DNA from: Escherichia coli
Lineage (GTDB): Bacteria > Pseudomonadota > Gammaproteobacteria > Enterobacterales > Enterobacteriaceae
Length of the DNA: 64,000 nt
Direction: 5' to 3' (one strand)
Assembly (NCBI RefSeq): GCF_016026235.1
Contig: NZ_CP065613.1
Both the position numbers and the translations under genes were made by a program. Shown here piece after piece: positions 3,724 to 40,222 of this stretch. Position 1 is the stretch's first letter, and each line of letters opens with the position of its first letter. Below the pieces are notes generated by a model that made no database searches, was not told where the DNA came from, and was given only the letters and a program-made list of their open reading frames with translations.

Positions 3724-4817
3724 AAGAAACGCTCCATCTTACTGCTGTCAGTTCGTTTATTACTGTATCTGCGCGGATTGCCGGGCTTCATGGGAGTGGA
3801 AAGCACCCGTGCACTTTCCTGGTCCACAGGCAGAAAATGTCCGTTATAAAAACGCCGGTAAATCGTTCCCAGAGAACCGTTACGTTGTTTCGTGATATTG
3901 ATTTCTGCGATGCCCCTGGCCTGCGTATCCGGGTTGTACACTTCATCCCTGTAAAGCATCAGAATGATGTCTGCATCCGCCTCTATTTCTCCGGAATTTT
4001 TCAGGTCTGAGTTCATGGGACGTTTATTGGGTCTGGACTCCACACCGCGGGAGAGCTGGCTCAGCGCAATCAACGGAAAACCACCGGATTTTGCCAGGCC
4101 TTTAAGCCCCTTTGAGATTTCACCCACGGCAAGGTCATGACGCCCCGTGGTTCGGGTTTTTATCAGCCCGAGATAATCAACCACCACCAGCGCCGTTTCC
4201 GGATGTTTAATCAGATGGTGTTTCGTTGTTGCGCATATCTCATCAATGGTCAGGTTCGCCTGGTCCACCATCCAGATATTGCGCCCGGTCATCCGCCCCA
4301 CCCCTTGTGAGAAACGCGCCCAGTCTTCATCTTCAAAGTGAGCCACAGATTTCAGGCGTGATACTGGCATCCCTCCAGCCGCAGACACCATACGTTCACC
4401 AATCTGGATGTTCGCCATCTCCATGGTGAACAGAAGCACACCATGCCCCTGCTCAGTCACCTTGTCGATGATGTCCAGCGCAAGTTCGGTTTTCCCCATC
4501 GAAGGACGAGCCGCAATAAATACCAGGTCGCCGGGCTCCATGCCGCCTGTTTTTGCGTCCAGTTCATCAATACCGGTCATCAACGTCCTGGATTTCTCCA
4601 GTCCCTGATTCCGGCATTCAACACGCTCAACCACCTCCGGAAGCACATCATCAATATGTACCGACTGAATAACGCCCTTTTCCGTCGACAATGAGGCCAT
4701 CATGTTCTGTGCATCCTTAAGAGCATCTTCAGCTGCTTCACAGGTATGCGCATTGAGGTAGCCTGAGTTTAACGGACACTCCTTCCTGAAATAGAATGGC
4801 ATCAGAAGGAGCTAATA

Positions 4818-5120
4818 ATGAGCAGAAAAAACCAACGTTACTCTAAAGAGTTCAAAGCCGAAGCTGTCAGAACGGTTCTTGAAAATCAACTTTCGATCAG
4901 TGAAGGCGCTTCCCGATTATCCCTTCCTGAAGGCACTTTAGGACAATGGGTTACCGCCGCCAGAAAAGGGCTCGGTACTCCTGGTTCCCGCACGGTGGCT
5001 GAACTGGAATCTGAAATTCTGCAACTGCGTAAGGCGTTAAATGAAGCTCGCCTTGAGCGAGATATATTAAAAAAAGCAACAGCGTATTTTGCACAGGAGT
5101 CGCTGAAAAATACGCGTTAA
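4818..5120 (+). CDS. IS600 OrfA (HTH transposase subunit)
   Basis: 100 aa, MSRKNQRYSKEFKAEAVR..., an IS3-family OrfA. It has Asn5 where the other two copies have Thr. Confidence 0.9.
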   Translation: MSRKNQRYSKEFKAEAVRTVLENQLSISEGASRLSLPEGTLGQWVTAARKGLGTPGSRTVAELESEILQLRKALNEARLERDILKKATAYFAQESLKNTR

Positions 5121-5155
5121 TCGAACAATGGCGACAACAATTTCCCATTGAAGCG

Positions 5156-5974
5156 ATGTGTCAGGTATTTGGTGTATCCAGGAGCGGTTATTACAACTGG
5201 GTACAGCATGAACCCTCAGACAGAAAACAAAGTGATGAGCGGCTAAAACTGGAGATTAAGGTGGCACATATCCGCACTCGCGAAACATATGGAACCCGGC
5301 GGCTCCAGACGGAGCTGGCAGAGAATGGCATCATCGTTGGTCGTGACCGACTGGCACGTCTTCGTAAGGAGCTAAGGCTACGCTGTAAGCAGAAACGCAA
5401 GTTCAGAGCGACTACGAACCCGAACCACAATCTGCCAGTTGCGCCAAATCTGCTGAACCAGACGTTCGCTCCTACAGCACCAAATCAGGTCTGGGTGGCG
5501 GACCTGACGTATGTTGCCACACAGGAGGGATGGTTGTACCTCGCTGGCATCAAAGATGTTTATACGTGCGAAATTGTCGGCTACGCCATGGGAGAGCGCA
5601 TGACAAAAGAGCTGACAGGTAAAGCCCTGTTTATGGCGCTCAGGAGCCAGCGCCCACCTGCCGGGCTAATCCACCACTCTGATCGAGGTTCACAGTACTG
5701 CGCATACGATTACCGGGTCATACAGGAGCAGTCTGGTCTGAAAACATCAATGTCGCGTAAAGGTAACTGTTACGACAACGCTCCGATGGAAAGCTTCTGG
5801 GGAACGCTGAAAAATGAGAGCCTGAGCCACTATCGTTTTAATAACCGGGATGAAGCCATCTCAGTAATACGGGAATACATTGAGATTTTCTACAATCGTC
5901 AGCGTCGTCACTCTCGTCTGGGGAATATCTCCCCGGCAGCCTTCAGGGAAAAATATCATCAGATGGCTGCTTAA
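5156..5974 (+). CDS. IS600 OrfB (DDE integrase domain; expressed as an OrfAB fusion by -1 frameshift)
   Basis: 272 aa carrying the rve-type motifs VWVADLTY, HSDRGSQY and DNAPMESFW. Confidence 0.9.
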   Translation: MCQVFGVSRSGYYNWVQHEPSDRKQSDERLKLEIKVAHIRTRETYGTRRLQTELAENGIIVGRDRLARLRKELRLRCKQKRKFRATTNPNHNLPVAPNLLNQTFAPTAPNQVWVADLTYVATQEGWLYLAGIKDVYTCEIVGYAMGERMTKELTGKALFMALRSQRPPAGLIHHSDRGSQYCAYDYRVIQEQSGLKTSMSRKGNCYDNAPMESFWGTLKNESLSHYRFNNRDEAISVIREYIEIFYNRQRRHSRLGNISPAAFREKYHQMAA

Positions 5975-6374
5975 AAAAAGAACAAATGGTAGTGTCCGCT
6001 ATTGCCAGTACACCTCACATCGCGTAATTTCTGTAATGCCTCGTTCAGTGTTTTTTCTGCATCGCGCAGTGCGGCATTGCGCCGCAACGCTGCAACATAG
6101 TGCTCCAGTGAAGACTTCACCCAGGTTTTACGCCCGGTATCAGTAATCACCGGGGCAAGTTCTGGCATCTCATTGCACAACAGCACAGGATCAATCACGC
6201 CGGACACACGGGCCTGTCTGCAGATGCCTGTGTAGATATCCCGGTACGGTCGTACAGAAAAAACGTCCGCCGGTAGTGTGGCCAGAATATCCATCACTTC
6301 AGGATCTGCTCCGCGCAGAAAGAACGCGCCGATGACAGCGCCTTCAAGGTCATCGTTACGCCATACTGGAGTTG

Positions 6375-8392: not shown

Positions 8393-8952
8393 GGACGCAC
8401 CTCCTTGTCAGAACCATTCAGCCTGGAATCAACAAGTGCAGCACCAAAAACAGCATCACCTACACGGTCGTACAGTTTGCTGGCCAGCGGAGATTCAACA
8501 GCCTTAAGCATTGGGTAAAGCTGGCTTGTCCAGATTTGATGGATTTCACGCAAATGCAGGTATACGCCTCTGGCGTTTTGTGCGACAGATGACATGTCAG
8601 CCGCACCAGCTCCTGATAAGCTCCTCTCCATCTGGTTAAAGGCATTGATGTATGCCTCTTTGAACCGGGCGGCACGTTTACCAGTGAAGCCCATAGCAAG
8701 GAAGGCGAAGCCGTCGCGGGTGATTTGGTAGCAGGGAAGTTTGCGAGTACCGCCGTTGGGCTGGCGTACCAAAATTGATGTCTCCGCAAAATTGCGGGCA
8801 CAAAACTCTGGAGAACAATCCAAAATGCGGATCTTTTTCAGAACATCGTCATGACGTTTAGAGAAGAAGTTGGCAACAGCCAGGGATGAAGTAACAGCCT
8901 GACCATCAACGATGGCAATTTCAGGTTGAGTGAGGGTTGGGATCGTAGCCAT
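8389..8952 (-). CDS. Phage regulatory protein Rha family (187 aa)
   Basis: MATIPTLTQPEIAIVDGQAVTSSLAVANFFSKRHDDVLKKIR... has the Rha N-terminal signature. AAGAGG lies upstream of the ATG at 8952. It is only the 3' third of the 620-aa track ORF. Confidence 0.75.
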   Translation of the reverse strand: MATIPTLTQPEIAIVDGQAVTSSLAVANFFSKRHDDVLKKIRILDCSPEFCARNFAETSILVRQPNGGTRKLPCYQITRDGFAFLAMGFTGKRAARFKEAYINAFNQMERSLSGAGAADMSSVAQNARGVYLHLREIHQIWTSQLYPMLKAVESPLASKLYDRVGDAVFGAALVDSRLNGSDKEVRP

Positions 8953-9306
8953 GATGGCAGCCTCTTTGGTGATTTTTAATAACTCACCACCAAAGCTTCT
9001 CACGGCAATAGGTGGTGAGACGTACAGGGGTGAGAAACCGGTCACCAAAGAACCCGGCCCAACCGAAGTTGGCCCTGCACGCCCCACCATAATTTGGGCG
9101 TAATGCTGCTCATGACACAAAAAAACCGCAAGAGCGCGGTTGTGCGCTTTGGTGAATTCCGGGTTCTCACGCCCGGCACCCGCTTTATAAGGTGCGGAGA
9201 CAGTGTAACGTCCCGAAATTGCAGAATCAATATCAAAATGTTGTAGCTGTGGACAACGCGAAGCCTTGTTGTTATTGTTTACAACAAGAACCAGAGGAAG
9301 CTTTAA

Positions 9307-9594
9307 ATGCCATCCAGACTGTATAAACAGTTCATCCGTCATCTCGGTGAATCTGAATACATACGAATCCGCATATGGGAAGTGGAGCCTGCTGTATTGG
9401 GTAGCCAGCACAACTACAAATACAGCATGGCTTATGTCGTTGATGGCATGTGTGTGATGCGTTACGACAACGAACGGGGTAAAGGCGATCACAAACACAT
9501 TGGTAGTCAGGAAGTCAGCACCAGCTTTGTCACCATTGAACAACTGCTCGCTGATTTTCTGGCTGACGTTGAATCCATCCGCAGAGGTATCTGA
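9307..9594 (+). CDS. TumE-like (DUF6516) putative toxin, 95 aa
   Basis: KYSMAYVVDGMCVMRYDNERGKGDHKHIG...FVTIEQLLADFLADVESIR matches the DUF6516/TumE pattern (YDNERGKGDH.H) as I recall it. Confidence 0.6.
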   Translation: MPSRLYKQFIRHLGESEYIRIRIWEVEPAVLGSQHNYKYSMAYVVDGMCVMRYDNERGKGDHKHIGSQEVSTSFVTIEQLLADFLADVESIRRGI

Positions 9595-9595
9595 C

Positions 9596-9955
9596 ATGAG
9601 AACCGTAACAATCCGAATCGAGTCAATGGATAATTTCACGGCTGATGTGCTGTCTGCGTTCCAGGAAGCAGCTACCGGAGCAAAAGCAACCAGAGAAAAC
9701 GTTATTTCATTTCCTGACTGGCAAATGATGCATAAGGTACTGACACCAAAACGCATGGACATTCTGATGGCAATGACTGGTGCCGGAGAAATGTCCATCC
9801 GAAAAATTGCAGCCCTGGTTGGACGTGATGTAAAAAGCGTGCATACTGACGTGACCGCACTCATCAGCAACGGTTTACTGGAAAAAAGCGAGCGCGGAAC
9901 GTCATTCCCGTATGACGACATCCACTTTGATTTTACGCTGGGCAAGGCGGCGTAA
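9596..9955 (+). CDS. HTH DNA-binding protein, TumA / COG4190-like putative antitoxin (119 aa)
   Basis: The ATG lies 1 nt after the upstream stop codon. MRTVTIRIESMD...LTPKRMDILMAMTGAGEMSIRKIAALVGRDVKSVHTDVTALISNGLLEK is a winged HTH. Confidence 0.6.
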   Translation: MRTVTIRIESMDNFTADVLSAFQEAATGAKATRENVISFPDWQMMHKVLTPKRMDILMAMTGAGEMSIRKIAALVGRDVKSVHTDVTALISNGLLEKSERGTSFPYDDIHFDFTLGKAA

Positions 9956-9976
9956 TTTTTCGTATATACCGTGCCG

Positions 9977-10153
9977 TCATTCCGGCGGCGCTTCACACTC
10001 CACAAAATCACGCCTGAACAACCACAACGGGCTGAAACATTCGTACGGATAGCCGTCACGCAGGTAAATGACTCGCTGCGTTTCAGACTCCCAGCGTATA
10101 ACGTGGACACGACGCCCCCTTCCGTCACGGAACCAGCGATTGAGGACTTGCAT
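9977..10153 (-). CDS. Small phage protein, DUF4222-like (58 aa, below the ORF-track cutoff)
   Basis: Hand translation gives MQVLNRWFRDGRGRRVHVIRWESETQRVIYLRDGYPYECFSPLWLFRRDFVECEAPPE. It lies directly downstream of the second Rha-type gene. Confidence 0.5.
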   Translation of the reverse strand: MQVLNRWFRDGRGRRVHVIRWESETQRVIYLRDGYPYECFSPLWLFRRDFVECEAPPE

Positions 10154-10172
10154 AAATTACCCGTAAACATTG

Positions 10173-10886
10173 TCACACCTTCCAGCCAGTAGCCTGAAAC
10201 AGGCCCATTCTCGGGTGATACCAGCGGGTACCACGCTGAACGGCACCACACATCATGTGATGAAACGCCTTCAGAAACGGTTCCACAGCAACAATTTCAC
10301 GACGTGCCAGTAATCCATCTGGCGTCAAAAATTCATGAGTGTCTGTCGGGATGTTGTATGCATTTACAAGCGTGCGACATTTCGCATCTGACATACCGGT
10401 TTTTGCTTTCAGCTGGCGATATCCGGCATAGCCCTCTCGAATGGTACCCTTTTTGATTTGCTCAACTGTTTCGGCTACGTGGCTGATTTTTTCTTCCACC
10501 TGAGTGATCCGTTTCTGCTGACGAACAGCCTCGAGCGCCATTGCGGCCACCATTTCGATTTCGCTCATTGGTTTGCGGATCTGTTCTTCCAGTTCGCGCC
10601 AGCGATCTACCAGGCGAGCAGTGAATTCAGGACAGAGCTGTGCGACGACAATGATGCTGTCGCGCTTACCTTGTTCTCCTTCAAACAGGTAATGCTCATA
10701 TTGAACTTTAAAACCTAAGTTATTGATTCTTTCGGAAACCTCAATTTGAGGAGACCGGACAACGCCACCTTTGGCTAATGTTTCAATAGTGCGTTTCACA
10801 TTGTCATGACGCTTACCCACCAGTTCTGCGATCTCAACGCTGGTCATGGATGCTTTGTCGTTAAAAATTGCGGTGTTCACTGCCAT
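10173..10886 (-). CDS. Rha-family regulator / antirepressor-like protein
   Basis: MTSVEIAELVGKRHDNVKRTIETLAKGGV... is a Rha-type N-terminus, followed by a coiled-coil and a KilAC-like C-terminus. The start is uncertain (ATG 10886, GTG 10880 or track start 10922), and AAGGAG lies adjacent. Confidence 0.7.
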   Translation of the reverse strand: MAVNTAIFNDKASMTSVEIAELVGKRHDNVKRTIETLAKGGVVRSPQIEVSERINNLGFKVQYEHYLFEGEQGKRDSIIVVAQLCPEFTARLVDRWRELEEQIRKPMSEIEMVAAMALEAVRQQKRITQVEEKISHVAETVEQIKKGTIREGYAGYRQLKAKTGMSDAKCRTLVNAYNIPTDTHEFLTPDGLLARREIVAVEPFLKAFHHMMCGAVQRGTRWYHPRMGLFQATGWKV

Positions 10887-15820: not shown

Positions 15821-15884
15821 TGAGGTAGCCTGAGTTTAACGGACACTCCTTCCTGAAATAGAATGGCATCAGAAGGAGCTAATA

Positions 15885-16187
15885 ATGAGCAGAAAAACCC
15901 AACGTTACTCTAAAGAGTTCAAAGCCGAAGCTGTCAGAACGGTTCTTGAAAATCAACTTTCGATCAGTGAAGGCGCTTCCCGATTATCTCTTCCTGAAGG
16001 CACTTTAGGACAATGGGTTACCGCCGCCAGAAAAGGGCTCGGTACTCCTGGTTCCCGCACGGTGGCTGAACTGGAATCTGAAATTCTGCAACTGCGTAAG
16101 GCGTTAAATGAAGCTCGCCTTGAGCGAGATATATTAAAAAAAGCAACAGCGTATTTTGCACAGGAGTCGCTGAAAAATACGCGTTAA
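15885..16187 (+). CDS. IS600 OrfA
   Basis: Identical to copy 3 OrfA, starting MSRKTQ.... Confidence 0.9.
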   Translation: MSRKTQRYSKEFKAEAVRTVLENQLSISEGASRLSLPEGTLGQWVTAARKGLGTPGSRTVAELESEILQLRKALNEARLERDILKKATAYFAQESLKNTR

Positions 16188-16222
16188 TCGAACAATGGCG
16201 ACAACAATTTCCCATTGAAGCG

Positions 16223-17041
16223 ATGTGTCAGGTATTTGGTGTATCCAGGAGCGGTTATTACAACTGGGTACAGCATGAACCCTCAGACAGAAAACAAAGT
16301 GATGAGCGGCTAAAACTGGAGATTAAGGTGGCACATATCCGCACTCGCGAAACATATGGAACCCGGCGGCTCCAGACGGAGCTGGCAGAGAATGGCATCA
16401 TCGTTGGTCGTGACCGACTGGCACGTCTTCGTAAGGAGCTAAGGCTACGCTGTAAGCAGAAACGCAAGTTCAGAGCGACTACGAACCCGAACCACAATCT
16501 GCCAGTTGCGCCAAATCTGCTGAACCAGACGTTCGCTCCTACAGCACCAAATCAGGTCTGGGTGGCGGACCTGACGTATGTTGCCACACAGGAGGGATGG
16601 TTGTACCTCGCTGGCATCAAAGATGTTTATACGTGCGAAATTGTCGGCTACGCCATGGGAGAGCGCATGACAAAAGAGCTGACAGGTAAAGCCCTGTTTA
16701 TGGCGCTCAGGAGCCAGCGCCCACCTGCCGGGCTAATCCACCACTCTGATCGAGGTTCACAGTACTGCGCATACGATTACCGGGTCATACAGGAGCAGTC
16801 TGGTCTGAAAACATCAATGTCGCGTAAAGGTAACTGTTACGACAACGCTCCGATGGAAAGCTTCTGGGGAACGCTGAAAAATGAGAGCCTGAGCCACTAT
16901 CGTTTTAATAACCGGGATGAAGCCATCTCAGTAATACGGGAATACATTGAGATTTTCTACAATCGTCAGCGTCGTCACTCTCGTCTGGGGAATATCTCCC
17001 CGGCAGCCTTCAGGGAAAAATATCATCAGATGGCTGCTTAA
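16223..17041 (+). CDS. IS600 OrfB
   Basis: Identical to copy 1 OrfB. Confidence 0.9.
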   Translation: MCQVFGVSRSGYYNWVQHEPSDRKQSDERLKLEIKVAHIRTRETYGTRRLQTELAENGIIVGRDRLARLRKELRLRCKQKRKFRATTNPNHNLPVAPNLLNQTFAPTAPNQVWVADLTYVATQEGWLYLAGIKDVYTCEIVGYAMGERMTKELTGKALFMALRSQRPPAGLIHHSDRGSQYCAYDYRVIQEQSGLKTSMSRKGNCYDNAPMESFWGTLKNESLSHYRFNNRDEAISVIREYIEIFYNRQRRHSRLGNISPAAFREKYHQMAA

Positions 17042-17150
17042 AAAAAGAACAAATGGTAGTGTCCGCTATTGCCAGTACACCTCAGTGCCAATACACCATT
17101 TATCCAGATTAAATAACTTATATGCCCGGCAGGCCGCCGGGCTAAGGGAA

Positions 17151-18197: not shown

Positions 18198-19476
18198 TTT
18201 AATGCCATGAAGTATGTAAGCTCGTATCGCTCTTGGGCGTCTGGAGGTATCAATGGATAAAGTCAAATATCCAACAGGCGTCGAAAACCACGGTGGCACA
18301 TTACGCATCTGGTTTAATTTTAAAGGTAAACGTGTCAGGGAAAATCTTGGTGTCCCTGACACTGCCAAGAACAGGAAGATCGCCGGAGAGCTGCGGACAT
18401 CTGTATGTTTTGCCATTCGTACAGGAAATTTTGATTATGCTGCGCAGTTCCCTGACTCTCCTAACCTCAAGGCTTTTGGGGTAAATAAAAAAGAAATTAC
18501 GGTGAAAGAACTTGAAGAAAAATGGCTGGATCTGAAACGAATGGAAATCTCTGCAAATGCATTCAATCGCTATGAATCCATTGCAAGGATGATGGTTCCG
18601 AAGATTGGTGGCAACCGACTGGTATCAGCAGTGACCAAAGAGGAATTGCTGTATATCAGGAAAGATTTGCTGACCGGATACCAAAATCCAACAAAAGGTA
18701 AAGCTCCAGTAAAAGGACGAAGCGTTGTCACAGTAAATTATTACATGACAACAATCGCTGGAATGTTTCAGTTTGCTGCAGATCACGGTTACATAGAAGC
18801 AAATCCCTTCGAGGGAATTAAGCCTCTTAAAAGAGCCAGGGCAGAACCAGATCCGCTAACTCGTGACGAATTTATTCGCCTGATAGATGCTTGCCGGCAT
18901 CAGCAGACAAAAAACCTGTGGTCATTGGCTGTGTACACAGGAATGCGTCATGGTGAACTGGTCTCCCTGGCCTGGGAAGATATCGATCTGAAAGCAGGAA
19001 CAATTACTATCAGGCGCAATTATACGAAACTCGGTGAGTTCACTCTACCTAAAACTGAAGCAAGTACAAACAGGGTTGTGCATCTTATCCAGCCCGCTAT
19101 CAGTGTCCTGAAAAATCAGGCTGAAATGACAAGACTGGGTAAGCAGCACAACATCAAGGTTCAACTACGTGAATATGGACGTTCAGTAAATCATGAATGT
19201 ACTTTCGTATTTAACCCCCAGGTGGTTAGAAAAAGCAAACAGGTAGGTTTTATCTACAAGGTAGATTCCATTGGCGACTCATGGGAAACAGCCATTAAAC
19301 GTGCAGGCATCAGGCATCGAAAGGCATACCAGTCACGACACACTTATGCGTGCTGGTCATTATCTGCCGGAGCAAATCCAAGCTTCATTGCCAGCCAGAT
19401 GGGGCATGCAAGTGAGGTAGCCTGAGTTTAACGGACACTCCTTCCTGAAATAGAATGGCATCAGAAGGAGCTAATA

Positions 19477-19779
19477 ATGAGCAGAAAAACCCAACGTTAC
19501 TCTAAAGAGTTCAAAGCCGAAGCTGTCAGAACGGTTCTTGAAAATCAACTTTCGATCAGTGAAGGCGCTTCCCGATTATCCCTTCCTGAAGGCACTTTAG
19601 GACAATGGGTTACCGCCGCCAGAAAAGGGCTCGGTACTCCTGGCTCCCGCACGGTGGCTGAACTGGAATCTGAAATTCTGCAACTGCGTAAGGCGTTAAA
19701 TGAAGCTCGCCTTGAGCGAGATATATTAAAAAAAGCAACAGCGTATTTTGCACAGGAGTCGCTGAAAAATACGCGTTAA
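19477..19779 (+). CDS. IS600 OrfA
   Basis: 100 aa, identical in protein sequence to copy 2. Confidence 0.9.
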   Translation: MSRKTQRYSKEFKAEAVRTVLENQLSISEGASRLSLPEGTLGQWVTAARKGLGTPGSRTVAELESEILQLRKALNEARLERDILKKATAYFAQESLKNTR

Positions 19780-19814
19780 TCGAACAATGGCGACAACAAT
19801 TTCCCATTGAAGCG

Positions 19815-20633
19815 ATGTGTCAGGTATTTGGTGTATCCAGGAGCGGTTATTACAACTGGGTACAGCATGAACCCTCAGACAGAAAACAAAGTGATGAGCG
19901 GCTAAAACTGGAGATTAAGGTGGCACATATCCGCACTCGCGAAACATATGGAACCCGGCGGCTCCAGACGGAGCTGGCAGAGAATGGCATCATCGTTGGT
20001 CGTGACCGACTGGCACGTCTTCGTAAGGAGCTAAGGCTACGCTGTAAGCAGAAACGCAAGTTCAGAGCGACTACGAACCCGAACCACAATCTGCCAGTTG
20101 CGCCAAATCTGCTGAACCAGACGTTCGCTCCTACAGCACCAAATCAGGTCTGGGTGGCGGACCTGACGTATGTTGCCACACAGGAGGGATGGTTGTACCT
20201 CGCTGGCATCAAAGATGTTTATACGTGCGAAATTGTCGGCTACGCCATGGGAGAGCGCATGACAAAAGAGCTGACAGGTAAAGCCCTGTTTATGGCGCTC
20301 AGGAGCCAGCGCCCACCTGCCGGGCTAATCCACCACTCTGATCGAGGTTCACAGTACTGCGCATACGATTACCGGGTCATACAGGAGCAGTTTGGTCTGA
20401 AAACATCAATGTCGCGTAAAGGTAACTGTTACGACAACGCTCCGATGGAAAGCTTCTGGGGAACGCTGAAAAATGAGAGCCTGAGCCACTATCGTTTTAA
20501 TAACCGGGATGAAGCCATCTCAGTAATACGGGAATACATTGAGATTTTCTACAATCGTCAGCGTCGTCACTCTCGTCTGGGGAATATCTCCCCGGCAGCC
20601 TTCAGGGAAAAATATCATCAGATGGCTGCTTAA
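19815..20633 (+). CDS. IS600 OrfB
   Basis: 272 aa. It has one substitution relative to copies 1 and 2 (EQFGLK versus EQSGLK). Confidence 0.9.
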   Translation: MCQVFGVSRSGYYNWVQHEPSDRKQSDERLKLEIKVAHIRTRETYGTRRLQTELAENGIIVGRDRLARLRKELRLRCKQKRKFRATTNPNHNLPVAPNLLNQTFAPTAPNQVWVADLTYVATQEGWLYLAGIKDVYTCEIVGYAMGERMTKELTGKALFMALRSQRPPAGLIHHSDRGSQYCAYDYRVIQEQFGLKTSMSRKGNCYDNAPMESFWGTLKNESLSHYRFNNRDEAISVIREYIEIFYNRQRRHSRLGNISPAAFREKYHQMAA

Positions 20634-20844
20634 AAAAAGAACAAATGGTAGTGTCCGCTATTGCCAGTACACCTCAAAGTGCCCAGATGGTGTTCAATGT
20701 ATACGGAGCATGGATGACTGACAGCAATGCAGAACAGATCGCAATGCTGAATCAGAAGCTGGCAGATTATGTCCCAATGATGTCCCATGGTCACCAAAGT
20801 GACACAAGAGGCTTATTAAAATCAGTGAGTTAGCTTTTAATACC

Positions 20845-32342: not shown

Positions 32343-34420
32343 TATTTGCCGCCAATTGTCGCCGTCATGCGGATATGTCGGTTATCAGACAGTTCCAGAT
32401 TCGACAGGACCACTAACTGCGGCAAGCTGCGGCGCAGGAAGCGAGACAATAATGGTCGCAGCGCGTGGTTCACCAACAATACTGGCGGCGCACCCAGCAT
32501 CTCCTGACGGGATAGCGCTTCCTGAGTTTGCGCCAGTAAACGATCCGCCAGCCCTGGCTCCAGTCCTCCCCCGCCCTGCAGCGCCTGTAGTAACAAACGT
32601 TCCAGCGGTGTATCGAGGCCAATAACATGGACTTCATCTTTGCCAGGAAACCACTGCTGGGTAATCGCCCGTCCCAACGCCACGCGCACGACGGCGGTTA
32701 ATTCATGTGGATCGCTTTGGATGGGCGCATGTTCCGCCAGCGTTTCGAGAATGGTGCGCATATCGCGAATCGGTACTTTTTCATCGAGGAGATTTTGCAG
32801 CACTTTATGCAGTGTGGTGAGCGTGACGACGCCAGGAACGAGATCTTCCGTCAGCTTTGGCATCTCCTGGGCGACGCGATCCAACAGCTGTTGCGCCTCC
32901 TGACGACCAAACAGCTCTGCGGCATGCTGGCTAATGAGGTGGTTAAGATGCGTTGCTACCACCGTGCTGGCCTCAACCACTGTGTACCCCTGAATCTGCG
33001 CCTGTTCTTTTAGCGCACTTTCAATCCAGATAGCATTCAGGCCAAATGCCGGATCGACGGTCGCCTCACCAGGTAACGTCCCGGCAGCGGTACCAGGGTT
33101 AATTGCCAGCCAGCGCCCCGGATAAGCATCACCACTGCCAATCTCTACGCCTTTCATCAAAATACGATAACGTGCCGGTTGCAGATCCATATTGTCGCGA
33201 ATGTGCACCACCGGCGGCAAGAAGCCCATTTCCTGAGCAAATTTCTTACGAATACTACGAATACGGCCCAGCAACTCGCCATCTTGTTGGAAATCAACCA
33301 TCGGGATCAGTCGATAACCCACTTCCATTCCCAGAGAATCTTCCAGTTGTACATCGTTCCACGTCGCTTCTACAACGGTATTATTCTCTGCCATTTTTAC
33401 CGGTTTGGGTTCGGCAGGCGCTTTTTGTTCGCGTCCGCGTATCCACCAGGCCAGCCCGAGCAATCCGGCAGTGAACAGCAAAAATACCAGGTTCGGCATT
33501 CCAGGCACCAGGCCGAGTAAACCGAGCACGGCGGCGCTTAACAACATAACGCTTGGGTTACTGAAAAGCTGATTCACCATCTGCTCGCCAACATCCTGAT
33601 CGGTGCTGACACGCGTAACGATGACCCCCGCGGCGGTAGAAATCACCAGCGCCGGAATTTGTGCCACCAGACCGTCGCCAATGGTCAATAGCGTATAACT
33701 TTCCGCCGCGTGTCCCATGCTCATGCCATGTTGCAGCACGCCGACCAGCAACCCGCCGACAACGTTAATGACCATGATGAGGATCCCGGCGATGGCATCG
33801 CCGCGAACAAACTTACTTGCCCCGTCCATTGAGCCGTAAAAATCGGCTTCCTGAGTGACTTCGGAGCGGCGTTTTTTCGCCTCATCTTCACCAATCAATC
33901 CGGCGTTAAGGTCGGCGTCAATCGCCATCTGCTTACCCGGCATACCATCGAGAACAAAGCGCGCACCCACTTCTGCGATACGCCCGGCACCTTTGGTAAT
34001 GACCATAAAGTTGATGATCACGAGAATGACAAACACCACGATACCGATAGCGAAATTGCCACCAACGAGGAAGTGACCGAACGCTTCGACCACCTTCCCT
34101 GCCGCCGCTGCGCCGGTATGCCCTTCCATCAAAATGATACGGGTTGAAGCCACGTTAAGTGCCAGACGCAACAGCGTGGTAAACAACAGAATGGTCGGAA
34201 ACGCAGCAAACTCGAGCGTGCGCTGGGTAAACATCGCCACCAGCAACACCATGATCGACAAGGCAATATTGAAGGTAAACAACAGGTCGAGTATGAATGC
34301 GGGCAGTGGCAGCACCATCATCGACAAGATCAACAGGATCAAAATCGGTCCGGCAAGGATCTGCCATTGTGTCGATTTCAGGTTTGCGGGCAGGCGCAGC
34401 ATCGCGGCCAGATTACTCAT
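32342..34420 (-). CDS. flhA: Flagellar export apparatus protein FlhA (intact, 692 aa)
   Basis: Starts MSNLAAMLRLPANLKSTQWQ. Its start codon overlaps the ancestral flhB stop codon. Confidence 0.95.
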   Translation of the reverse strand: MSNLAAMLRLPANLKSTQWQILAGPILILLILSMMVLPLPAFILDLLFTFNIALSIMVLLVAMFTQRTLEFAAFPTILLFTTLLRLALNVASTRIILMEGHTGAAAAGKVVEAFGHFLVGGNFAIGIVVFVILVIINFMVITKGAGRIAEVGARFVLDGMPGKQMAIDADLNAGLIGEDEAKKRRSEVTQEADFYGSMDGASKFVRGDAIAGILIMVINVVGGLLVGVLQHGMSMGHAAESYTLLTIGDGLVAQIPALVISTAAGVIVTRVSTDQDVGEQMVNQLFSNPSVMLLSAAVLGLLGLVPGMPNLVFLLFTAGLLGLAWWIRGREQKAPAEPKPVKMAENNTVVEATWNDVQLEDSLGMEVGYRLIPMVDFQQDGELLGRIRSIRKKFAQEMGFLPPVVHIRDNMDLQPARYRILMKGVEIGSGDAYPGRWLAINPGTAAGTLPGEATVDPAFGLNAIWIESALKEQAQIQGYTVVEASTVVATHLNHLISQHAAELFGRQEAQQLLDRVAQEMPKLTEDLVPGVVTLTTLHKVLQNLLDEKVPIRDMRTILETLAEHAPIQSDPHELTAVVRVALGRAITQQWFPGKDEVHVIGLDTPLERLLLQALQGGGGLEPGLADRLLAQTQEALSRQEMLGAPPVLLVNHALRPLLSRFLRRSLPQLVVLSNLELSDNRHIRMTATIGGK

Positions 34421-35561
34421 GGGTCGGTTTCTCGTTAATAAAATCCAGGGCTTCCGGCACCGGAAGATGAGTAGGTTGTACAGGGCGCTGTCCACCAGCC
34501 AGACGCCAGCGTTTCAGTTGCCAGACCTAGGCCAGCACTTCCGCCACCGCGGCGTACAGTTGACCCGGGATTTGTTGACCAATCTCCGCATGTCGATACA
34601 GCGCTCGCGCCAGCGGCGGCGCTTCAAGCGTCGGGACGTTATTTTCAGCGCCAATTTCACGAATGCGCAGCGCGACCAGCCCTGCACCTTTAGCGACCAC
34701 TTTCGGTGCGCTCATTTTGTTTTCGTCATACTGCAACGCTACCGAATAGTGGGTCGGGTTATTGACAATGACATCCGCTTTCGGCACATCGGCCATCATC
34801 CGACGCCGTGCAGCCGCTCGCTGCATCTGACGGATCCGCCCTTTAACATGGGGGTCGCCTTCGCTTTGTTTGAACTCATCACGAATATCCTGCCGCGACA
34901 TACGCAGCTTTTTCAGGTGGCTGAAGATTTGGAAAAAGACGTCAAATCCCACCATTGGAATGACACCAAGCACCACCAGCAGTGCGCATAGCCCTACCAG
35001 ATCCATCGCATTACCCATGGCGGTAATCGGAGACTCGGCCATTAAGCGCATCATCTGCGGCCAGTGATGCCAGAGAAAAAACCCCGTCACGCTGCCAACC
35101 AGGATGGTTTTCAAAATTGCTTTAAGTAACTCCGCGCCAGTCTGTGCCGAGAACATCCGTTTAATGCCCGGTAGCGGGTTGAGTTTGGAAAACTTCGGCT
35201 GCAAGGATTTGCCGCTAAATACCAGCCCTCCCAGCATGACCGGAGAAATGAGCGCCACCAGCACCACGCAGCTAATCAGCGGTAGCAGCGCCAGCATGGC
35301 TTCTCTGATCAGCAGAATAAACTGCCCGAGGATCAGATTCGGGTCATTGATAATACTGTGATCAAAATGCAGCCCAGCGGAGAGCATGCCCGACAATCGA
35401 CGGGCCAGGGACACACCGCCAAACCAGATAACACACACGCCCACCAGCAAAATCAGCAGTGAAGTCAGTTCACGGGAACGTGGGATTTGCCCCTCTTCCC
35501 GCGCTTTTTCTAGTCGGTGAGGTGTGGGGGCTTCTGTTTTGTCGTCGCTCTCGTCAGACAC
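34413..35561 (-). pseudogene. flhB: flhB with premature amber codon (344 of about 382 codons translated)
   Basis: The ORF ends ...AAVAEVLA-TAG at 34527-34529. The same frame continues VWQLKRWRLAGGQRPVQPTHLPVPEALDFINEKPTHE to the ancestral TAA at 34413-34415. Confidence 0.9.
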
Positions 35562-35796
35562 GTCGCCAATCCTGGAAAGAGTATTAAGCGTAAATGATGC
35601 CAGAGCGCAAAGCGTTCAATGGTTTGAGTAAGGGGCAAAACCGGCGGGATTTAGGACGTTTATGCAAAAATAGGTTCAGTTGCAGAACGTTTTGCGAACC
35701 ATTTTCCAGTTCTGATATTTAGCCATTTAGCCTATAGAATCGCCCACCGCCTCTCTGTTAGTTTGCTAATAATTAAATTATTACAAAGGTGATCAA

Positions 35797-37305
35797 ATGG
35801 AATGGCAACAATTGCTTAACTGCAACCGTCGGAAAGATAATCTAAAAAAAACCAACATAGCATTTTTACATCCCCTTGCTAGCGGAAGACAAGAGATCGA
35901 ACGGGATTACGACCGATTACTTTTTGCTGCGCCAACTCGTCGCCTTGCGGATAAAACACAAGTTTTCCCGTTAGATCAAAATGACAGCATACGGACGAGA
36001 CTGACTCATTCTCACGAAGTAGCAAACTTTGCTCGCGGAATAGGAATGAGACTCGCTTTCGAGATGAAGGAGCACATCTTTGGCGAAATACCCACGGGGA
36101 TTGTCGTTGAACGCGACGTTCCTGCTCTGTTAGCAGCGATCGGACTGGCACACGATCTCGGTAATCCACCATTTGGGCATCAAGGTGAAGCAGCGATGCG
36201 CGCATGGTTTAATAAAAATCTTCCAGGTCTTCTTGATAAAGAAGTAAACAGCGAAATATATAACGACTTTCTGCAATTTGATGGAAACTCACAAACCCTG
36301 CGCCTGGTTACCAAATTACAAATTATTAACGATAACTTTGGTCTGAATTTGACCTATGCCACGCTGGCTGCACTGATCAAATATCCCCGAGCTTCATATT
36401 CATCGGACAAACATTGGAAAAAGCACGGTTTTTTCTATTCTGAGCATGAGGTTGTCATGGATGTCTGGCAGCAAACGGGCCTTGGCGTACCAGGTAATGA
36501 TGCCGGTTGCCGCCACCCATTTACCTGGATAATGGAAGCTTGCGACGATATTGCCTACTCTGTGCTTGACGCAGAAGATACCATCAAGAAAGGATTTGCC
36601 TCATACCAGGATTTGCGTGATTTTTTGATGTCACAATCCGGGGCGAACGATGTAATTGAAAATGTTATTAAAGCTGTAGAGGCCAAAAATGACGCCTGGA
36701 AAGAGCAAAGAAATGCACTTTCACCGGCAGAAATTAATGAACTCAGTATGCAAATGTTCAGAGTGTATGCCACCAGTGCATTGATTAATGCCGTAGTAGA
36801 AGCCTTTCGCGAACAATTACCCACGCTGATGCAGCGTGACTGCCCGTTCAAAGATTTAATCTCGCAAAGCAAAGGTCACGCCCTCTGCACTGCCCTGAAA
36901 ATGTTCGACCGAACACGAGGCTACCTTCATCGTTCAGTCTTGCAACTGGAACTTAGGGGGTCTAATTACATTACTAACTTGATGGATATGCTCTGGATTG
37001 GCATCCATGGACACAAAACAAAGAAAGAACGAGACGGAGAACGCGAGTCCGCGTCTGCAGATAACCTTTTTGTTTCTCGTGAAGAATACCTGTCGGATAC
37101 TCCCTTTGGTCGCTATGCTTACGGGACAATATCTGAAAATTATCGCCGTGTGTTTGAAGATCCCGCCAATACACTCCCTGTTCTTTATAAAGAAGCGCAG
37201 TTGCTTACCGACGCAATCTCAGGCATGACGGATAGTTATTTAATGCGCCTTCACGATGAGCTAAAATCACTGTATGAATGTGGTCTCAAACACCCAACAG
37301 CTTGA
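35797..37305 (+). CDS. Dgt-family dNTP (dGTP) triphosphohydrolase paralogue, HD domain, 502 aa
   Basis: Motifs are collinear with E. coli Dgt: RRLADKTQVFPL, RTRLTHSHEV, AHDLGNPPFGH, FDGNSQTLRL, PFTWIMEACDDIAY and ISGMTDSY. The RBS is AAGGTGATCAAATG. The region is AT-rich relative to its flanks. Confidence 0.85.
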   Translation: MEWQQLLNCNRRKDNLKKTNIAFLHPLASGRQEIERDYDRLLFAAPTRRLADKTQVFPLDQNDSIRTRLTHSHEVANFARGIGMRLAFEMKEHIFGEIPTGIVVERDVPALLAAIGLAHDLGNPPFGHQGEAAMRAWFNKNLPGLLDKEVNSEIYNDFLQFDGNSQTLRLVTKLQIINDNFGLNLTYATLAALIKYPRASYSSDKHWKKHGFFYSEHEVVMDVWQQTGLGVPGNDAGCRHPFTWIMEACDDIAYSVLDAEDTIKKGFASYQDLRDFLMSQSGANDVIENVIKAVEAKNDAWKEQRNALSPAEINELSMQMFRVYATSALINAVVEAFREQLPTLMQRDCPFKDLISQSKGHALCTALKMFDRTRGYLHRSVLQLELRGSNYITNLMDMLWIGIHGHKTKKERDGERESASADNLFVSREEYLSDTPFGRYAYGTISENYRRVFEDPANTLPVLYKEAQLLTDAISGMTDSYLMRLHDELKSLYECGLKHPTA

Positions 37306-38026
37306 ACAGCGTATCGCCGATTTTTTTACGCTTAGTGATGAGCATAAGAAAGCCAGAGTATTACTTGATACTCTGGCCTGTTCCTGTCCGGCCTGGATTT
37401 TTGGCGGGATGGTGCGTGACTTAGGCTTGTTTGGCGTCGAAGGATTCTCTTCAGACCTTGATATCGTCATCGGTCGCTCGCGTGAGGAACTCTTCCAGAC
37501 ATTGGCTGAACTGCCCGTCAAACAACTGCGTTTTAATAAGTTTGGTGGGATCCGTTTTCGTTATCACGACTTCGAATTTGATATCTGGAACCTCAATGAG
37601 ACATGGGCATTTCGGGAAAAACTTATATTTTGTGAGGATGAATCAAGTCTGTTAAACACTACGCTAATGAGTTGGGATGCCGTGCTCTATGATCTACGTA
37701 GTGAAAAAATTATCAGTAAAGATAATTATTTGACCGATTTAAATCGCAGACATCTTGAACTTGTTCTTCATACTAACCCCAATCCAAGCGGTTCGGTAAC
37801 GAAGATTTTACGCACTATTTTTACTAAGCAGGTAAAGAGTTTAGGGCCGGAACTCTGTCATTTCTTGCACCATGAACTGACGAAAAAACGTTATGAAGTA
37901 TGGCATCACTACGATGTACTGCACTACCAATCATCGTCATTTTCTCGTTCACAATTTAATGCATTGATAAATTTACTGGCGCAACAATCACGCTTCGCTG
38001 ATCTAAAATTATCAAACTACAAATAA
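37274..38026 (+). CDS. Pol-beta superfamily nucleotidyltransferase (CCA-adding/poly(A)-polymerase head-like), 250 aa
   Basis: FGGMVRDLGLFGVEGFSSDLDIVI carries the GG-x-VRD...DxD motif, with a further acidic DFEFDIW strand. It overlaps the dGTPase gene by 32 nt on the same strand. There is no strong RBS. Confidence 0.65.
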   Translation: MNVVSNTQQLEQRIADFFTLSDEHKKARVLLDTLACSCPAWIFGGMVRDLGLFGVEGFSSDLDIVIGRSREELFQTLAELPVKQLRFNKFGGIRFRYHDFEFDIWNLNETWAFREKLIFCEDESSLLNTTLMSWDAVLYDLRSEKIISKDNYLTDLNRRHLELVLHTNPNPSGSVTKILRTIFTKQVKSLGPELCHFLHHELTKKRYEVWHHYDVLHYQSSSFSRSQFNALINLLAQQSRFADLKLSNYK

Positions 38027-38113
38027 CCATCCTCCACGTACTCCCTGAACGAAACCCGCCACCCTGCTATCGGCCTGGCATCATCGCGCAGGCCGAAGTT
38101 CAGGCAATACAAA

Positions 38114-38758
38114 TCAAAATCCAAGACTATCCAACAAATCGTCCACCTGATCCTGACTGGCTACCACACCGGCTTTGCTGGTATCGACCTGAGGTCCATT
38201 AAGCAAACTCTGGTTTTCACGTTTTGGACGCGACTCCTGTTCCGGGATGTTTTCCAACAGCACCATCAGCAACTGGCGTTCGATCTCCTGAATGACATCC
38301 ATCATCCGCTTAATGACCTGCCCGGTGAGATCCTGAAAATCCTGCGCCATCATGATTTCCAGCAGTTGCGCGTTAGTAAAGCTGGTATGCGCGGGTACAT
38401 CTGCCAGAAATTGTCGTGTATCTGTTACCAGTTCACGGGCGTCGGCAAGGTCAATCGGATCGGCAAACCAGTCATCCCAACGTTGGGTTAACGCTTTTGC
38501 TGATTTCTCCATTTGATCCTGATGCGGTTGTGACGCCTCAACACTGTTCAGCGCCCGCTCCGCAGCCTGGGCGGTCATCTGCACAACATAGTACAAACGA
38601 TCGCGCGCATCGGGGATGGCTTCCGCCGCTTCGGCAATGGCCTGATCCAGCCCCAGTTCCCGCAAACTGTCGCGCAGCATACGCGTCAGGCTGCCGATGC
38701 GCGCAATGATATCGCCAGCTGAATGCTCGTCAGCAGGTTTGATTGATGGTTGCATCAT
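38114..38758 (-). CDS. cheZ: CheY-P phosphatase CheZ
   Basis: [24 protein letters not shown]..., 214 aa. Confidence 0.95.
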
Positions 38759-38768
38759 AGTCGCATCC

Positions 38769-40222
<1,454 letters not shown>

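Follow-up and report, generated by a model that had tools for sequence, protein, structure and literature searches.

A gene pair in an accessory flhB–cheZ island of Escherichia coli is very probably a Clover anti-phage system

Identity of the gene pair

An AT-rich island between flhB and cheZ of an Escherichia coli chromosome very probably encodes the Clover anti-phage system, in the form of cloA (35797–37305, + strand) and cloB (37274–38026, + strand). Positions are those of the window, the whole 64,000-nt stretch of contig NZ_CP065613.1 that was analysed. Homology to Clover proteins, conserved catalytic and ligand residues, a nucleotidyltransferase fold, strict linkage of the two genes, accessory spread and purifying selection were all observed in the present analysis. 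If the products behave like their published relatives, CloB of the window allele would make p3diT, CloA would respond to dTTP, and T5-like phages would be blocked.

The cloA/cloB pair is already known: the system was described and mechanistically solved in 2025–2026. Clover was presented by Yamaguchi et al. in a preprint of July 2025 (bioRxiv 2025.07.09.663793; PMC12265719), where it was defined as a dNTPase-NTase operon, and a Nature 2026 version of that paper (PMC13078526) is cited by a 2026 review. The first-pass annotation of this DNA, which had found no named system that fits the pair, is overtaken on this point, as the pair corresponds to CloA/CloB of these papers.

As published (PMC12265719), CloA assembles as a four-leaf octamer and is, alone, an inactive HD-domain dGTPase. 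Dmp and NrdAB enzymes encoded by T5-like phages reshape the nucleotide pool, and dTTP rises; the active site is completed once dTTP occupies an allosteric pocket where the two CloA subunits of a dimer meet, and the activated enzyme hydrolyses dGTP, so that phage DNA replication is starved (PMC12265719). Without infection, CloB links two thymidine nucleotides to form p3diT (5′-triphosphothymidyl-3′,5′-thymidine; m/z 785.1), which occupies a neighbouring CloA pocket so that more dTTP is required for activation, and self-poisoning is thereby prevented (PMC12265719). The published EC50 for dTTP and IC50 for p3diT are ~15 µM and ~7.6 µM. The Clover operons of Salmonella and E. coli H5 protected >10,000-fold against T5-like phages; defence was lost in HD mutants of CloA, and D71A/D73A mutants of CloB were toxic (PMC12265719). 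This biochemistry was published for the Salmonella and E. coli H5 proteins and, for CloB, also the Xanthomonas protein (PMC12265719). The first-pass guess that the nucleotidyltransferase (NTase) regulates the hydrolase via a signalling nucleotide is thus what the Clover papers showed experimentally, and of its two other guesses, neither that the NTase nucleotidylylates the hydrolase nor that it acts on a nucleic acid is backed by these papers.

The E. coli H5 operon used in the published assays (IMG genes 2719124844 and 2719124845) measures 2,200 bp, against 2,230 bp for the pair in the window, and the two alleles are therefore not the same. The H5 length fits a pair of the type seen at locus L056 (492 + 250 aa). 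This type was absent among 5,426 complete E. coli genomes, and its FlhB is only ~83% identical to the FlhB of the window.

An AT-rich accessory island between flhB and cheZ

The inserted island (35656–38099, 2,444 bp, assigned to no strand) has the flhB promoter region on one side and the cheZ stop codon on the other. Its junctions were defined by reading the window against the empty site of an E. coli genome without the insert (L002), and it was found to stand in place of a spacer of ~94 bp that is present there. In E. coli K-12, flhB and cheZ are neighbours with only a short terminator/promoter spacer between them. From the flhB start (35561, − strand) to the cheZ stop (38114, − strand) the gap was 2,552 bp in the window and 201 bp in L002, in keeping with the distance of ~2.5 kb that had been noticed earlier. 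The two ORFs were found exactly as first described, at 35797–37305 and 37274–38026 on the same strand with a 32-nt overlap.

The GC content was 0.38–0.50 inside the insert and 0.52–0.59 in the flanks, so its description as an AT-rich island holds. The gene pair itself had a GC content of 43.8% versus 51.7% for 10 kb of flank on each side, and in 57/57 loci the pair was lower in GC than its own flanks. When the locus was aligned to other E. coli, the flanks were matched in 5,386 of 5,426 complete genomes and the insert was present in 106. The island is accessory in E. coli, not core, as had been proposed, and the alternative of ordinary core genes fails.

The ORF list of the island contained no integrase or transposase, and a repeat search found no direct or inverted repeats at its boundaries. 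Since the island ends are repeat-free, transposition and site-specific integration were rejected as routes of insertion. A scan of 35000–38800 against Rfam at a permissive threshold gave no match.

Both flanking genes lie outside the system. On the left, flhB (34413–35561, − strand) carries a premature stop (W345*), its ORF in the window ending at 34527 after 344 aa; this stop is due to one G-to-A difference from strain FDAARGOS_943, which changes TGG to TAG. On the right, cheZ (38114–38758, − strand) is intact and encodes 214 aa from the methionine of MMQPSIKP; the annotation of strain A2 has this same gene of 645 nt (214 aa) as protein phosphatase CheZ. The host genome appears degenerate, with several copies of IS600 besides the nonsense codon in flhB.

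Could the pair be a housekeeping or metabolic dNTP-pool module, that is, a regulated Dgt paralogue with no role in immunity? The Pseudomonas pair adjoins nrdAB, and in Enterobacteriaceae the pair has a conserved chromosomal position without mobility genes, both as expected of such a module. The Pectobacterium pair points the same way, being found in the order erpA-btuF-mtn, pair, degP-cdaR, the position of the housekeeping dgt in E. coli K-12. Against this, only 2% of E. coli genomes carry the pair, its AT content exceeded that of its flanks at every locus examined, the Salmonella and Vibrio pairs sit in islands with integrases and IS elements, and the Salmonella and E. coli H5 systems protect >10,000-fold against phage (PMC12265719). 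We therefore regard a purely metabolic role as very unlikely, and Clover is retained as the identity of the pair.

CloA, the probable dGTPase effector

The cloA product (ORF A, 502 aa) was assigned as the Clover effector, an HD-domain dGTP triphosphohydrolase, from its TIGR01353, PADLOC and PDB matches. HD and HD_assoc domains were found in it. The protein passed TIGR01353 (284.7 bits, cut-off 152.35) and matched the PADLOC dGTPase model at 1e-70. It failed both NF003429, the equivalog model for housekeeping Dgt (PRK04926; 271.2 bits, cut-off 405), and NF041026, the antiphage_dGTPase model (183 bits, curated cut-off 400). All five Dgt motifs picked out by eye in the first-pass annotation (RTRLTHSHEV, HDLGNPPFGH, FDGNSQ, IMEACDDIAY and ISGMTD) were present in the translation, and its view of ORF A as a Dgt-family dGTPase unlike the housekeeping Dgt agrees with the TIGR01353 and NF003429 scores (for the latter, 271 versus 405 bits).

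A PDB sequence search with ORF A retrieved the Salmonella CloA cryo-EM structures 9p8s–9p8v (E = 2.8e-189). Each of these consists of eight chains of one 473-residue protein, the Salmonella CloA octamer, and their codes immediately precede 9P8W, which the Clover paper gives as its SpdGTPase entry. ORF A matched the SpdGTPase structure (9p8w) at E = 2e-24 and E. coli Dgt (4x9e) at E = 2e-38. The identity between ORF A and Salmonella CloA was 61%.

The six catalytic residues of CloA were all kept: the metal ligands H71, H119, D120 and D250 (Salmonella H69, H117, D118 and D242) and the HE dyad H128 and E131 (Salmonella H126 and E129). Alignment to Salmonella CloA showed the dGTP contacts kept at 8/8 positions. 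As judged from sequence, the predicted p3diT pocket is identical to that of Salmonella (T25, R29, R34, D37, R38, F41, N75, N181, Q311 and R314) at nine of ten residues, only T25 being replaced (L27), and the predicted dTTP pocket (R47, D61, Q172, K256, S418, N420, A444, T449 and Y452 in Salmonella) at all nine.

Three residues named in the Clover paper were not kept, namely T25 (L27 here), which contacts the p3diT phosphodiester, Q427 (D455) and H263 (Q271). Q427 stabilises the suppressed state of CloA, and H263 serves in tetramer stacking (PMC12265719). At the octamer interface, R46 was kept and H263 was not. Relative to Salmonella, CloA of the window has insertions of 12 aa at 407–418 and 8 aa at 426–433, which lie ~13 to 40 residues N-terminal of the dTTP-contacting S446 and N448. 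These insertions near the dTTP pocket might, speculatively, reset the activation threshold.

The PADLOC dGTPase match and the HD and HD_assoc domains would also suit a stand-alone, constitutively active anti-phage dGTPase of the SpdGTPase type, with ORF B as an unrelated neighbour. However, ORF A fell far below the NF041026 cut-off, its match to 9p8w was weak compared with that to CloA, and the residues of the predicted p3diT and dTTP pockets are kept. In addition, ORF B is fixed beside ORF A (52/53 loci including CloA remnants; see below), and published CloA is inactive by itself (PMC12265719). A stand-alone enzyme is thus highly improbable, and ORF A is treated as CloA in what follows.

CloB, a predicted p3diT synthase

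The cloB product (ORF B, 250 aa) was assigned by homology and modelling as the Clover regulatory nucleotidyltransferase and predicted p3diT synthase. It aligned with Salmonella CloB over its full length at 35% identity (E = 4e-55). D61-L-D63 of ORF B aligned with the published catalytic D71-I-D73, and D103 with the third carboxylate; the active-site pattern of CloB, [D/E]h[D/E]...h[D/E]h, was thus present. Among 22 homologues, G44, G45, R48, D49, S60, D61, D63 and D103 were invariant (GG..RD...SDxD...D).

Profile searches with ORF B (PADLOC, Pfam and NCBIfam) gave only sub-threshold PolyA_pol and PcnB hints, the score against PF01743 (PolyA_pol) being 16.5 bits, below the Pfam threshold of 23, and a PDB sequence search gave no match. 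An AlphaFold2 model of ORF B was obtained with a pLDDT of 91.5. In a fold search with this model, the best solved structures were class II CCA-adding enzymes (E = 7e-9, TM ~0.55 on the query), of which only the head and neck aligned with the CloB model. Such a fold suits dinucleotide synthesis, because this family adds nucleotides to a 3′-OH without a template. The weak PF01743 match, the invariant motif and the CCA-adding-enzyme-like fold together uphold the earlier reading of ORF B as a Pol-beta-type nucleotidyltransferase.

Linkage, decay and selection

Co-occurrence of the genes was checked at 53 CloB loci, spread over gamma-, alpha- and beta-proteobacteria and one Alicyclobacillaceae MAG. 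A CloA gene, intact or remnant, was found directly upstream of CloB in 52 of them. A full-length or near-full-length CloA homologue lay directly upstream on the same strand at 50 loci, including two (L004 and L011) where CloA was broken into two pieces. A 51st (L024) had the C-terminal part of CloA at the contig start; as for the remaining two, L033 had a CloA stub, and at L031 the contig ends before CloA. CloB also directly followed CloA in four further loci, from Salmonella, Vibrio, Pseudomonas and Pectobacterium. These results indicated that the dGTPase and the nucleotidyltransferase form a fixed unit, as had been supposed.

In the window, cloA and cloB overlap by 32 nt (37274–37305, + strand). 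The overlap is also 32 nt in L056 and L057, and 47 nt in Salmonella. The 32-nt overlap suggests translational coupling of the two genes. Where the pair had decayed (L033, and probably L004 and L011), cloA was the broken gene and cloB was intact.

Compared with the ST648 allele, dN/dS was 0.22 for cloA and 0.02 for cloB, indicating purifying selection on both genes. The window proteins differ from those of the common E. coli allele by twelve amino acids, none of them at a functional residue.

Cells that have CloA die when CloB activity is lost (PMC12265719), which is addiction-like. This, the loss of cloA with retention of cloB in decayed pairs, and an IS-rich host genome with a nonsense codon in flhB would fit a pair that persists in this genome mainly as a selfish addiction module akin to a toxin-antitoxin, or as a remnant in decay, and yields no useful defence. 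Yet cloA and cloB were both full length, their dN/dS values are those of genes under purifying selection, and 0/12 of the amino-acid differences fell on functional residues. We consider such a module or remnant most improbable, and a functional Clover system remains the preferred reading.

Origin of the flhB–cheZ copy and expression signals

At least five further named genera of enterobacteria were found to have Clover at this same flhB–cheZ position, with a nearly constant flhB–cloA spacer (232–248 bp). The silent-site divergence of the island was similar to that of its flanks. From the orthologous site in at least five genera, the constant spacer, the flank-like silent divergence and the lack of mobility genes, the flhB–cheZ Clover could be an old chromosomal resident of the Enterobacteriaceae rather than recent mobile-element cargo; we put this forward only tentatively, as a rather unlikely history. 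Clover and flank divergence were positively correlated over 14 syntenic loci (Spearman 0.54–0.70), but a cluster of close Pseudescherichia relatives dominates this correlation, which was therefore not taken as proof of vertical descent. If Clover is indeed an old resident, it would have been lost by most lineages, including 98% of E. coli, or have been transferred solely by recombination across the adjoining flagellar genes.

A candidate sigma-70-like promoter of cloA was seen at 35712–35740 (+ strand; CTGATA, 17 nt, TAGAAT; 9/12 consensus matches), 57 nt upstream of the start codon. Consensus hits in this region were fewer than in shuffled sequences, so it is only a candidate. Sequence blocks surrounding it (TTCCAG and TTTGTTAG) were also seen in this spacer in other genera. 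Inspection by eye around the left junction gave no reliable FlhDC or sigma-28 box. More speculatively, a divergent control region might be common to cloA and the class 2 promoter of flhBAE; Clover expression might then follow motility, and so be linked to the phages that motile cells encounter.

Between the converging cloB and cheZ, a stable RNA hairpin was predicted at 38044–38104 (assigned to no strand; −28.6 kcal/mol; z = −4.47 versus 200 shuffles), the outer stem of which spans the island junction. A terminator scan called no intrinsic terminator after cloB, and no T-run follows the hairpin. It is likely a terminator shared by cloB and cheZ.

Comparison with known systems

RefSeq calls the two genes "dgt" and "hypothetical protein", and PADLOC v2 models recognise the dGTPase half only. 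Relabelling them as cloA and cloB would yield a defence system with a known trigger (the rise in dTTP) and a known off-signal (p3diT). Some 2% of the complete E. coli genomes would gain this annotation, clinical strains of ST648 type among them. The pair opens no new question, the earlier idea being right and already answered in print. Small additions to Clover biology are its fixed flhB–cheZ location, free of mobility genes, in several genera of enterobacteria and a pattern of decay in which cloA is lost and cloB kept.

The window pair resembled Salmonella Clover in gene order, strand, the overlap of the genes and the catalytic aspartates of CloB. It differed in that CloA was 31 aa longer, including the 12- and 8-aa insertions at 407–433, and did not keep T25, Q427 and H263, and in that CloB was only 35% identical. 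The island around Salmonella Clover contains an integrase and IS elements, whereas the window copy has no mobility genes.

Stand-alone accessory dGTPases reportedly protect bacteria by depleting dGTP in phage infection (Tal et al., 2022). CloA of the window shares with such an enzyme (SpdGTPase, 9p8w) the HD dNTPase fold and the logic of dGTP depletion. SpdGTPase, however, is a single gene product, a hexamer active without a cue and mainly directed against T7 (PMC12265719), whereas ORF A has an obligate NTase partner. The housekeeping Dgt of E. coli has the TIGR01353 family and active-site motifs in common with ORF A but is distant to it, lies at another chromosomal locus and has no NTase partner.

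CloB has the GGxVRD...DxD signature of class II CCA-adding enzymes and poly(A) polymerase, and by analogy with CCA-adding enzymes may share template-free nucleotide addition to a 3′-OH. CCA-adding enzymes are ~400 aa long, while CloB has 250 aa and is without the tRNA-holding body and tail domains; the published CloB product is a dinucleotide, while CCA-adding enzymes and poly(A) polymerase produce extended RNA. As for Hailong and Panoptes/MISS, no sequence relationship of CloB to them was found (CloB had no PADLOC match), and their effectors, signals and triggers are unlike those of Clover. Their logic is nevertheless the same, in that the constantly made product of a nucleotidyltransferase, oligo-dA in Hailong and 2′,3′-c-di-AMP in Panoptes/MISS, holds an effector off (PMC12265719).

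Site, composition and distribution of the insert

Two overlapping ORFs on the plus strand, ORF A (35797–37305, 502 aa) and ORF B (37274–38026, 250 aa), lay between the minus-strand genes flhB (start 35561) and cheZ (stop 38114). In an E. coli locus lacking the insert (L002) flhB and cheZ were 201 bp apart, and both junctions, read against this empty site, delimited an insert of 2,444 bp (35656–38099) replacing a spacer of ~94 bp. The first-pass annotation's claim that two ORFs with a 32-nt overlap were inserted here was thus confirmed, as was its claim of a lower GC content: the gene pair had 43.8% GC and the flanks 51.7%, with values of 0.38–0.50 within the region and 0.52–0.59 beyond. A repeat search detected no direct or inverted repeats at the insert ends, ORF reading revealed no integrase or transposase ORF within the insert, and no Rfam family match to the region was found. 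The flanks were matched in 5,386 of 5,426 complete E. coli genomes but the insert in only 106, so it was accessory, as had been proposed, and not a pair of ordinary core genes; the site was otherwise essentially always empty in these genomes.

ORF A resembles the dGTPase CloA

ORF A scored above the TIGR01353 cut-off (284.7 versus 152 bits), was matched by the PADLOC dGTPase model at 1e-70 and contained all five of the Dgt motifs quoted earlier, and is a Dgt-family HD phosphohydrolase. It fell below the curated cut-off of the housekeeping Dgt equivalog NF003429 (271 versus 405 bits), in agreement with the earlier distinction from housekeeping Dgt, and below that of the stand-alone anti-phage dGTPase model NF041026 (183 versus 400 bits).

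PDB entries 9p8s–9p8v (eight chains per entry of a 473-residue dNTP triphosphohydrolase) matched ORF A at E = 2.8e-189. ORF A was 61% identical to Salmonella CloA, the hydrolase of the anti-phage system Clover, and kept all six of its metal ligands and HE dyad residues (H71, H119, D120, D250, H128 and E131) and all eight dGTP contacts. The predicted dTTP pocket was intact (9/9: R49, D63, Q175, K264, S446, N448, A473, T478 and Y481), and the putative pocket for p3diT (5'-triphosphothymidyl-3',5'-thymidine) was kept at nine of ten positions (T25 to L27). Salmonella Q427 and the tetramer-stacking H263 corresponded to D455 and Q271 in the window protein, which also had additional segments (407–418 and 426–433) shortly N-terminal of the dTTP-contacting S446/N448. 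These differences are within-family variation, with no defining feature failed.

ORF B resembles the nucleotidyltransferase CloB

ORF B gave a sub-threshold match to PF01743, the poly(A) polymerase head domain (E = 0.011), and none to the PADLOC models. A GG..RD...SDxD...D pattern, the Pol-beta nucleotidyltransferase signature, was invariant in an alignment of 22 homologues. The solved structures that best matched a confident AlphaFold2 model built from this alignment (pLDDT 91.5, pTM 0.88) were without exception CCA-adding or A-adding enzymes of class II (E = 7e-9; TM ~0.55 on the query). Such enzymes extend a 3'-OH in a template-independent manner; ORF B is ~150 residues shorter and so covers the head and neck alone. 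Motif and modelled fold together support the earlier assignment to a Pol-beta-type nucleotidyltransferase. Aligned over its full length, ORF B shared 35% identity with Salmonella CloB (E = 4e-55), and its D61/D63 aligned with the catalytic D71/D73 that were mutated by the authors of the Clover study.

The two genes are linked across bacteria

Relatives of ORF B were scanned with one genome per species, giving 53 loci from gamma-, alpha- and beta-proteobacteria, one Alicyclobacillaceae MAG and one Cyclobacteriaceae MAG. An ORF A homologue of full or nearly full length lay directly upstream on the same strand in 50 of them, including L004 and L011, where the CloA match was in two pieces. At a 51st locus (L024) the C-terminal part of ORF A stood at the contig start, at L031 the upstream side was cut by the contig end, and in a gammaproteobacterial MAG (L033, 814–1843) an intact CloB (263 aa) followed an 89-aa N-terminal CloA stub. 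The reverse search, from ORF A homologues, found a CloB partner downstream of them in Salmonella, Vibrio harveyi, Pseudomonas and Pectobacterium. The pair was lower in GC than its flanks at 57/57 loci (mean difference 10.8 points). ORF A and ORF B form a fixed unit, and the expectation that they would be linked elsewhere held.

Some neighbourhoods were recorded separately. In Pectobacterium brasiliense (L064/L065, 10001–12200) the pair lay between erpA-btuF-mtn and degP-cdaR, the spot that housekeeping dgt occupies in E. coli K-12; this location hints at a historical tie of the dgt locus to Clover. In Pseudomonas (L062/L063, 10001–16895) Clover adjoined and converged on host nrdB and nrdA, and RelB and Bro-N genes lay upstream. 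The adjacency may be coincidence; it deserves attention in that dNTP pools are what Clover senses and phage NrdAB is where escape mutations occur. In Salmonella (L060, 5489–8310) and Vibrio harveyi (L061, 12325–15317) Clover adjoined the same four genes, encoding a small protein, a nucleoside 2-deoxyribosyltransferase-like protein, a QueC-like protein and a ~222-aa protein. These genes may form a further system, for defence or DNA modification, that travels with Clover; both islands also carried integrases or resolvases.

The flhB-cheZ site in other Enterobacteriaceae

Clover was also present at the flhB-cheZ site of Citrobacter amalonaticus, Pseudescherichia, Enterobacter quasihormaechei, Atlantibacter, Pluralibacter and several further Enterobacteriaceae, at least five other named genera in total (loci L006–L016, L018, L056 and L057; Clover at ~8500–10750 in most). 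At this shared site CloB identity to the window protein went down to 41–73%, and a window-like flhB-cloA spacer of 232–248 bp occurred in five loci (four named genera and one MAG). The pattern resembles that of a long-term resident that is often lost, or of one exchanged by recombination via the flagellar genes on either side, and does not resemble that of mobile-element cargo. The correlation between divergence of Clover and of its flanks is confounded by close relatives.

State of the window copy

Both ORFs were full length, and the insert was 100% identical to those of FDAARGOS_943 and AHM8C160RI and ~98% identical to the common allele of ST648 and many other strains. Against the ST648 allele, dS and dN/dS were 0.043 and 0.22 for cloA, 0.093 and 0.02 for cloB, 0.051 and 0.05 for flhB, 0.051 and 0 for cheZ, and 0.035 and 0 for cheY. 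cloA and cloB are under purifying selection. Since their silent-site divergence resembled that of the core genes on either side, the island seems to have diverged along with its chromosomal surroundings and not to be a recent arrival. None of the 12 amino-acid differences from the ST648 allele fell at the listed functional residues.

A weak candidate sigma-70-like promoter preceded cloA by 57 nt. In the gap where cloB and cheZ converge, a stable hairpin (38044–38104; -28.6 kcal/mol, z = -4.5) had an outer stem crossing the island junction, with island CCTGAAC pairing with conserved cheZ-side GTTCAGG. At the empty site, these cheZ-side bases (ATCAGGC) appear to pair with upstream GCCTGAT; because that spacer supplies its own pairing partner, the cheZ-distal hairpin seems to be kept with and without the insert.

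Codon 345 of the window flhB (34527–34529) read TAG where FDAARGOS_943, whose flhB is otherwise identical, has TGG (W345*, last 38 residues lost). In that strain cheZ was frameshifted instead; these changes point to motility-gene decay in the lineage. The window also carried three copies of an IS600-like element (4754–6017, 15821–17084 and 19408–20677), sharing ~99% identity with the IS600 annotated in FDAARGOS_943, and the best matches to 1–25000 included enteroinvasive-type strains, e.g. CFSAN029787. A Shigella- or EIEC-like genome is the probable origin of the window.

Decay of the pair

In decayed pairs cloA was broken and cloB survived (L033, and probably L004 and L011). Decay seems to remove the toxic partner CloA first, which fits the published toxicity of CloA without CloB. 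In E. coli strain E17 (L067, 3001–4329), IS1 truncated cloA after ~620 nt and was directly followed by a partial otsA, with cloB and the genes between cloB and otsA deleted; E17 lost cloB along with most of cloA through this IS1 deletion.

Comparison with the published Clover system

Clover was described as an operon of a dNTPase (CloA) and an NTase (CloB) in >650 genomes, and the operons of Salmonella SA20044414 and E. coli H5 gave >10,000-fold protection against T5-like phages (PMC12265719). The dGTPase CloA has no activity by itself, and dTTP specifically turns it on; escape phages were mutated in Dmp or NrdAB, phage enzymes that raise dNTP levels; and inactivation of CloB was toxic to the cell (PMC12265719). 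A 2026 citing review gives the final paper as Nature 652:978. The preprint prints the CloA codes as 8P9S–8P9V and that of the stand-alone SpdGTPase as 9P8W (PMC12265719). We read the former as a transposition of 9p8s–9p8v, because of the SpdGTPase code and because the 9p8s-v sequence was nearly identical to the Salmonella protein P0108.

The recovered Salmonella operon was 2,203 bp, exactly the length in the paper; that of E. coli H5 is 2,200 bp and that of the window 2,230 bp. The window pair is a Clover system, and its allele is identical to neither tested operon; for this reason we infer from conservation, with high confidence, that it would function likewise in the window genome. The first-pass view that no named system fits did not stand, since Clover is a named system with structures and a known mechanism. 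Its reading of an accessory defence pair acting as one unit was correct in substance, and its suggestion that the NTase regulates the hydrolase through a signalling nucleotide agrees with the finding that the CloB product p3diT binds and inhibits CloA (IC50 ~7.6 uM; PMC12265719). Thus, the pair is already known and not a new system; the shared flhB-cheZ site and the cloA-first decay are additions to the published account of Clover.
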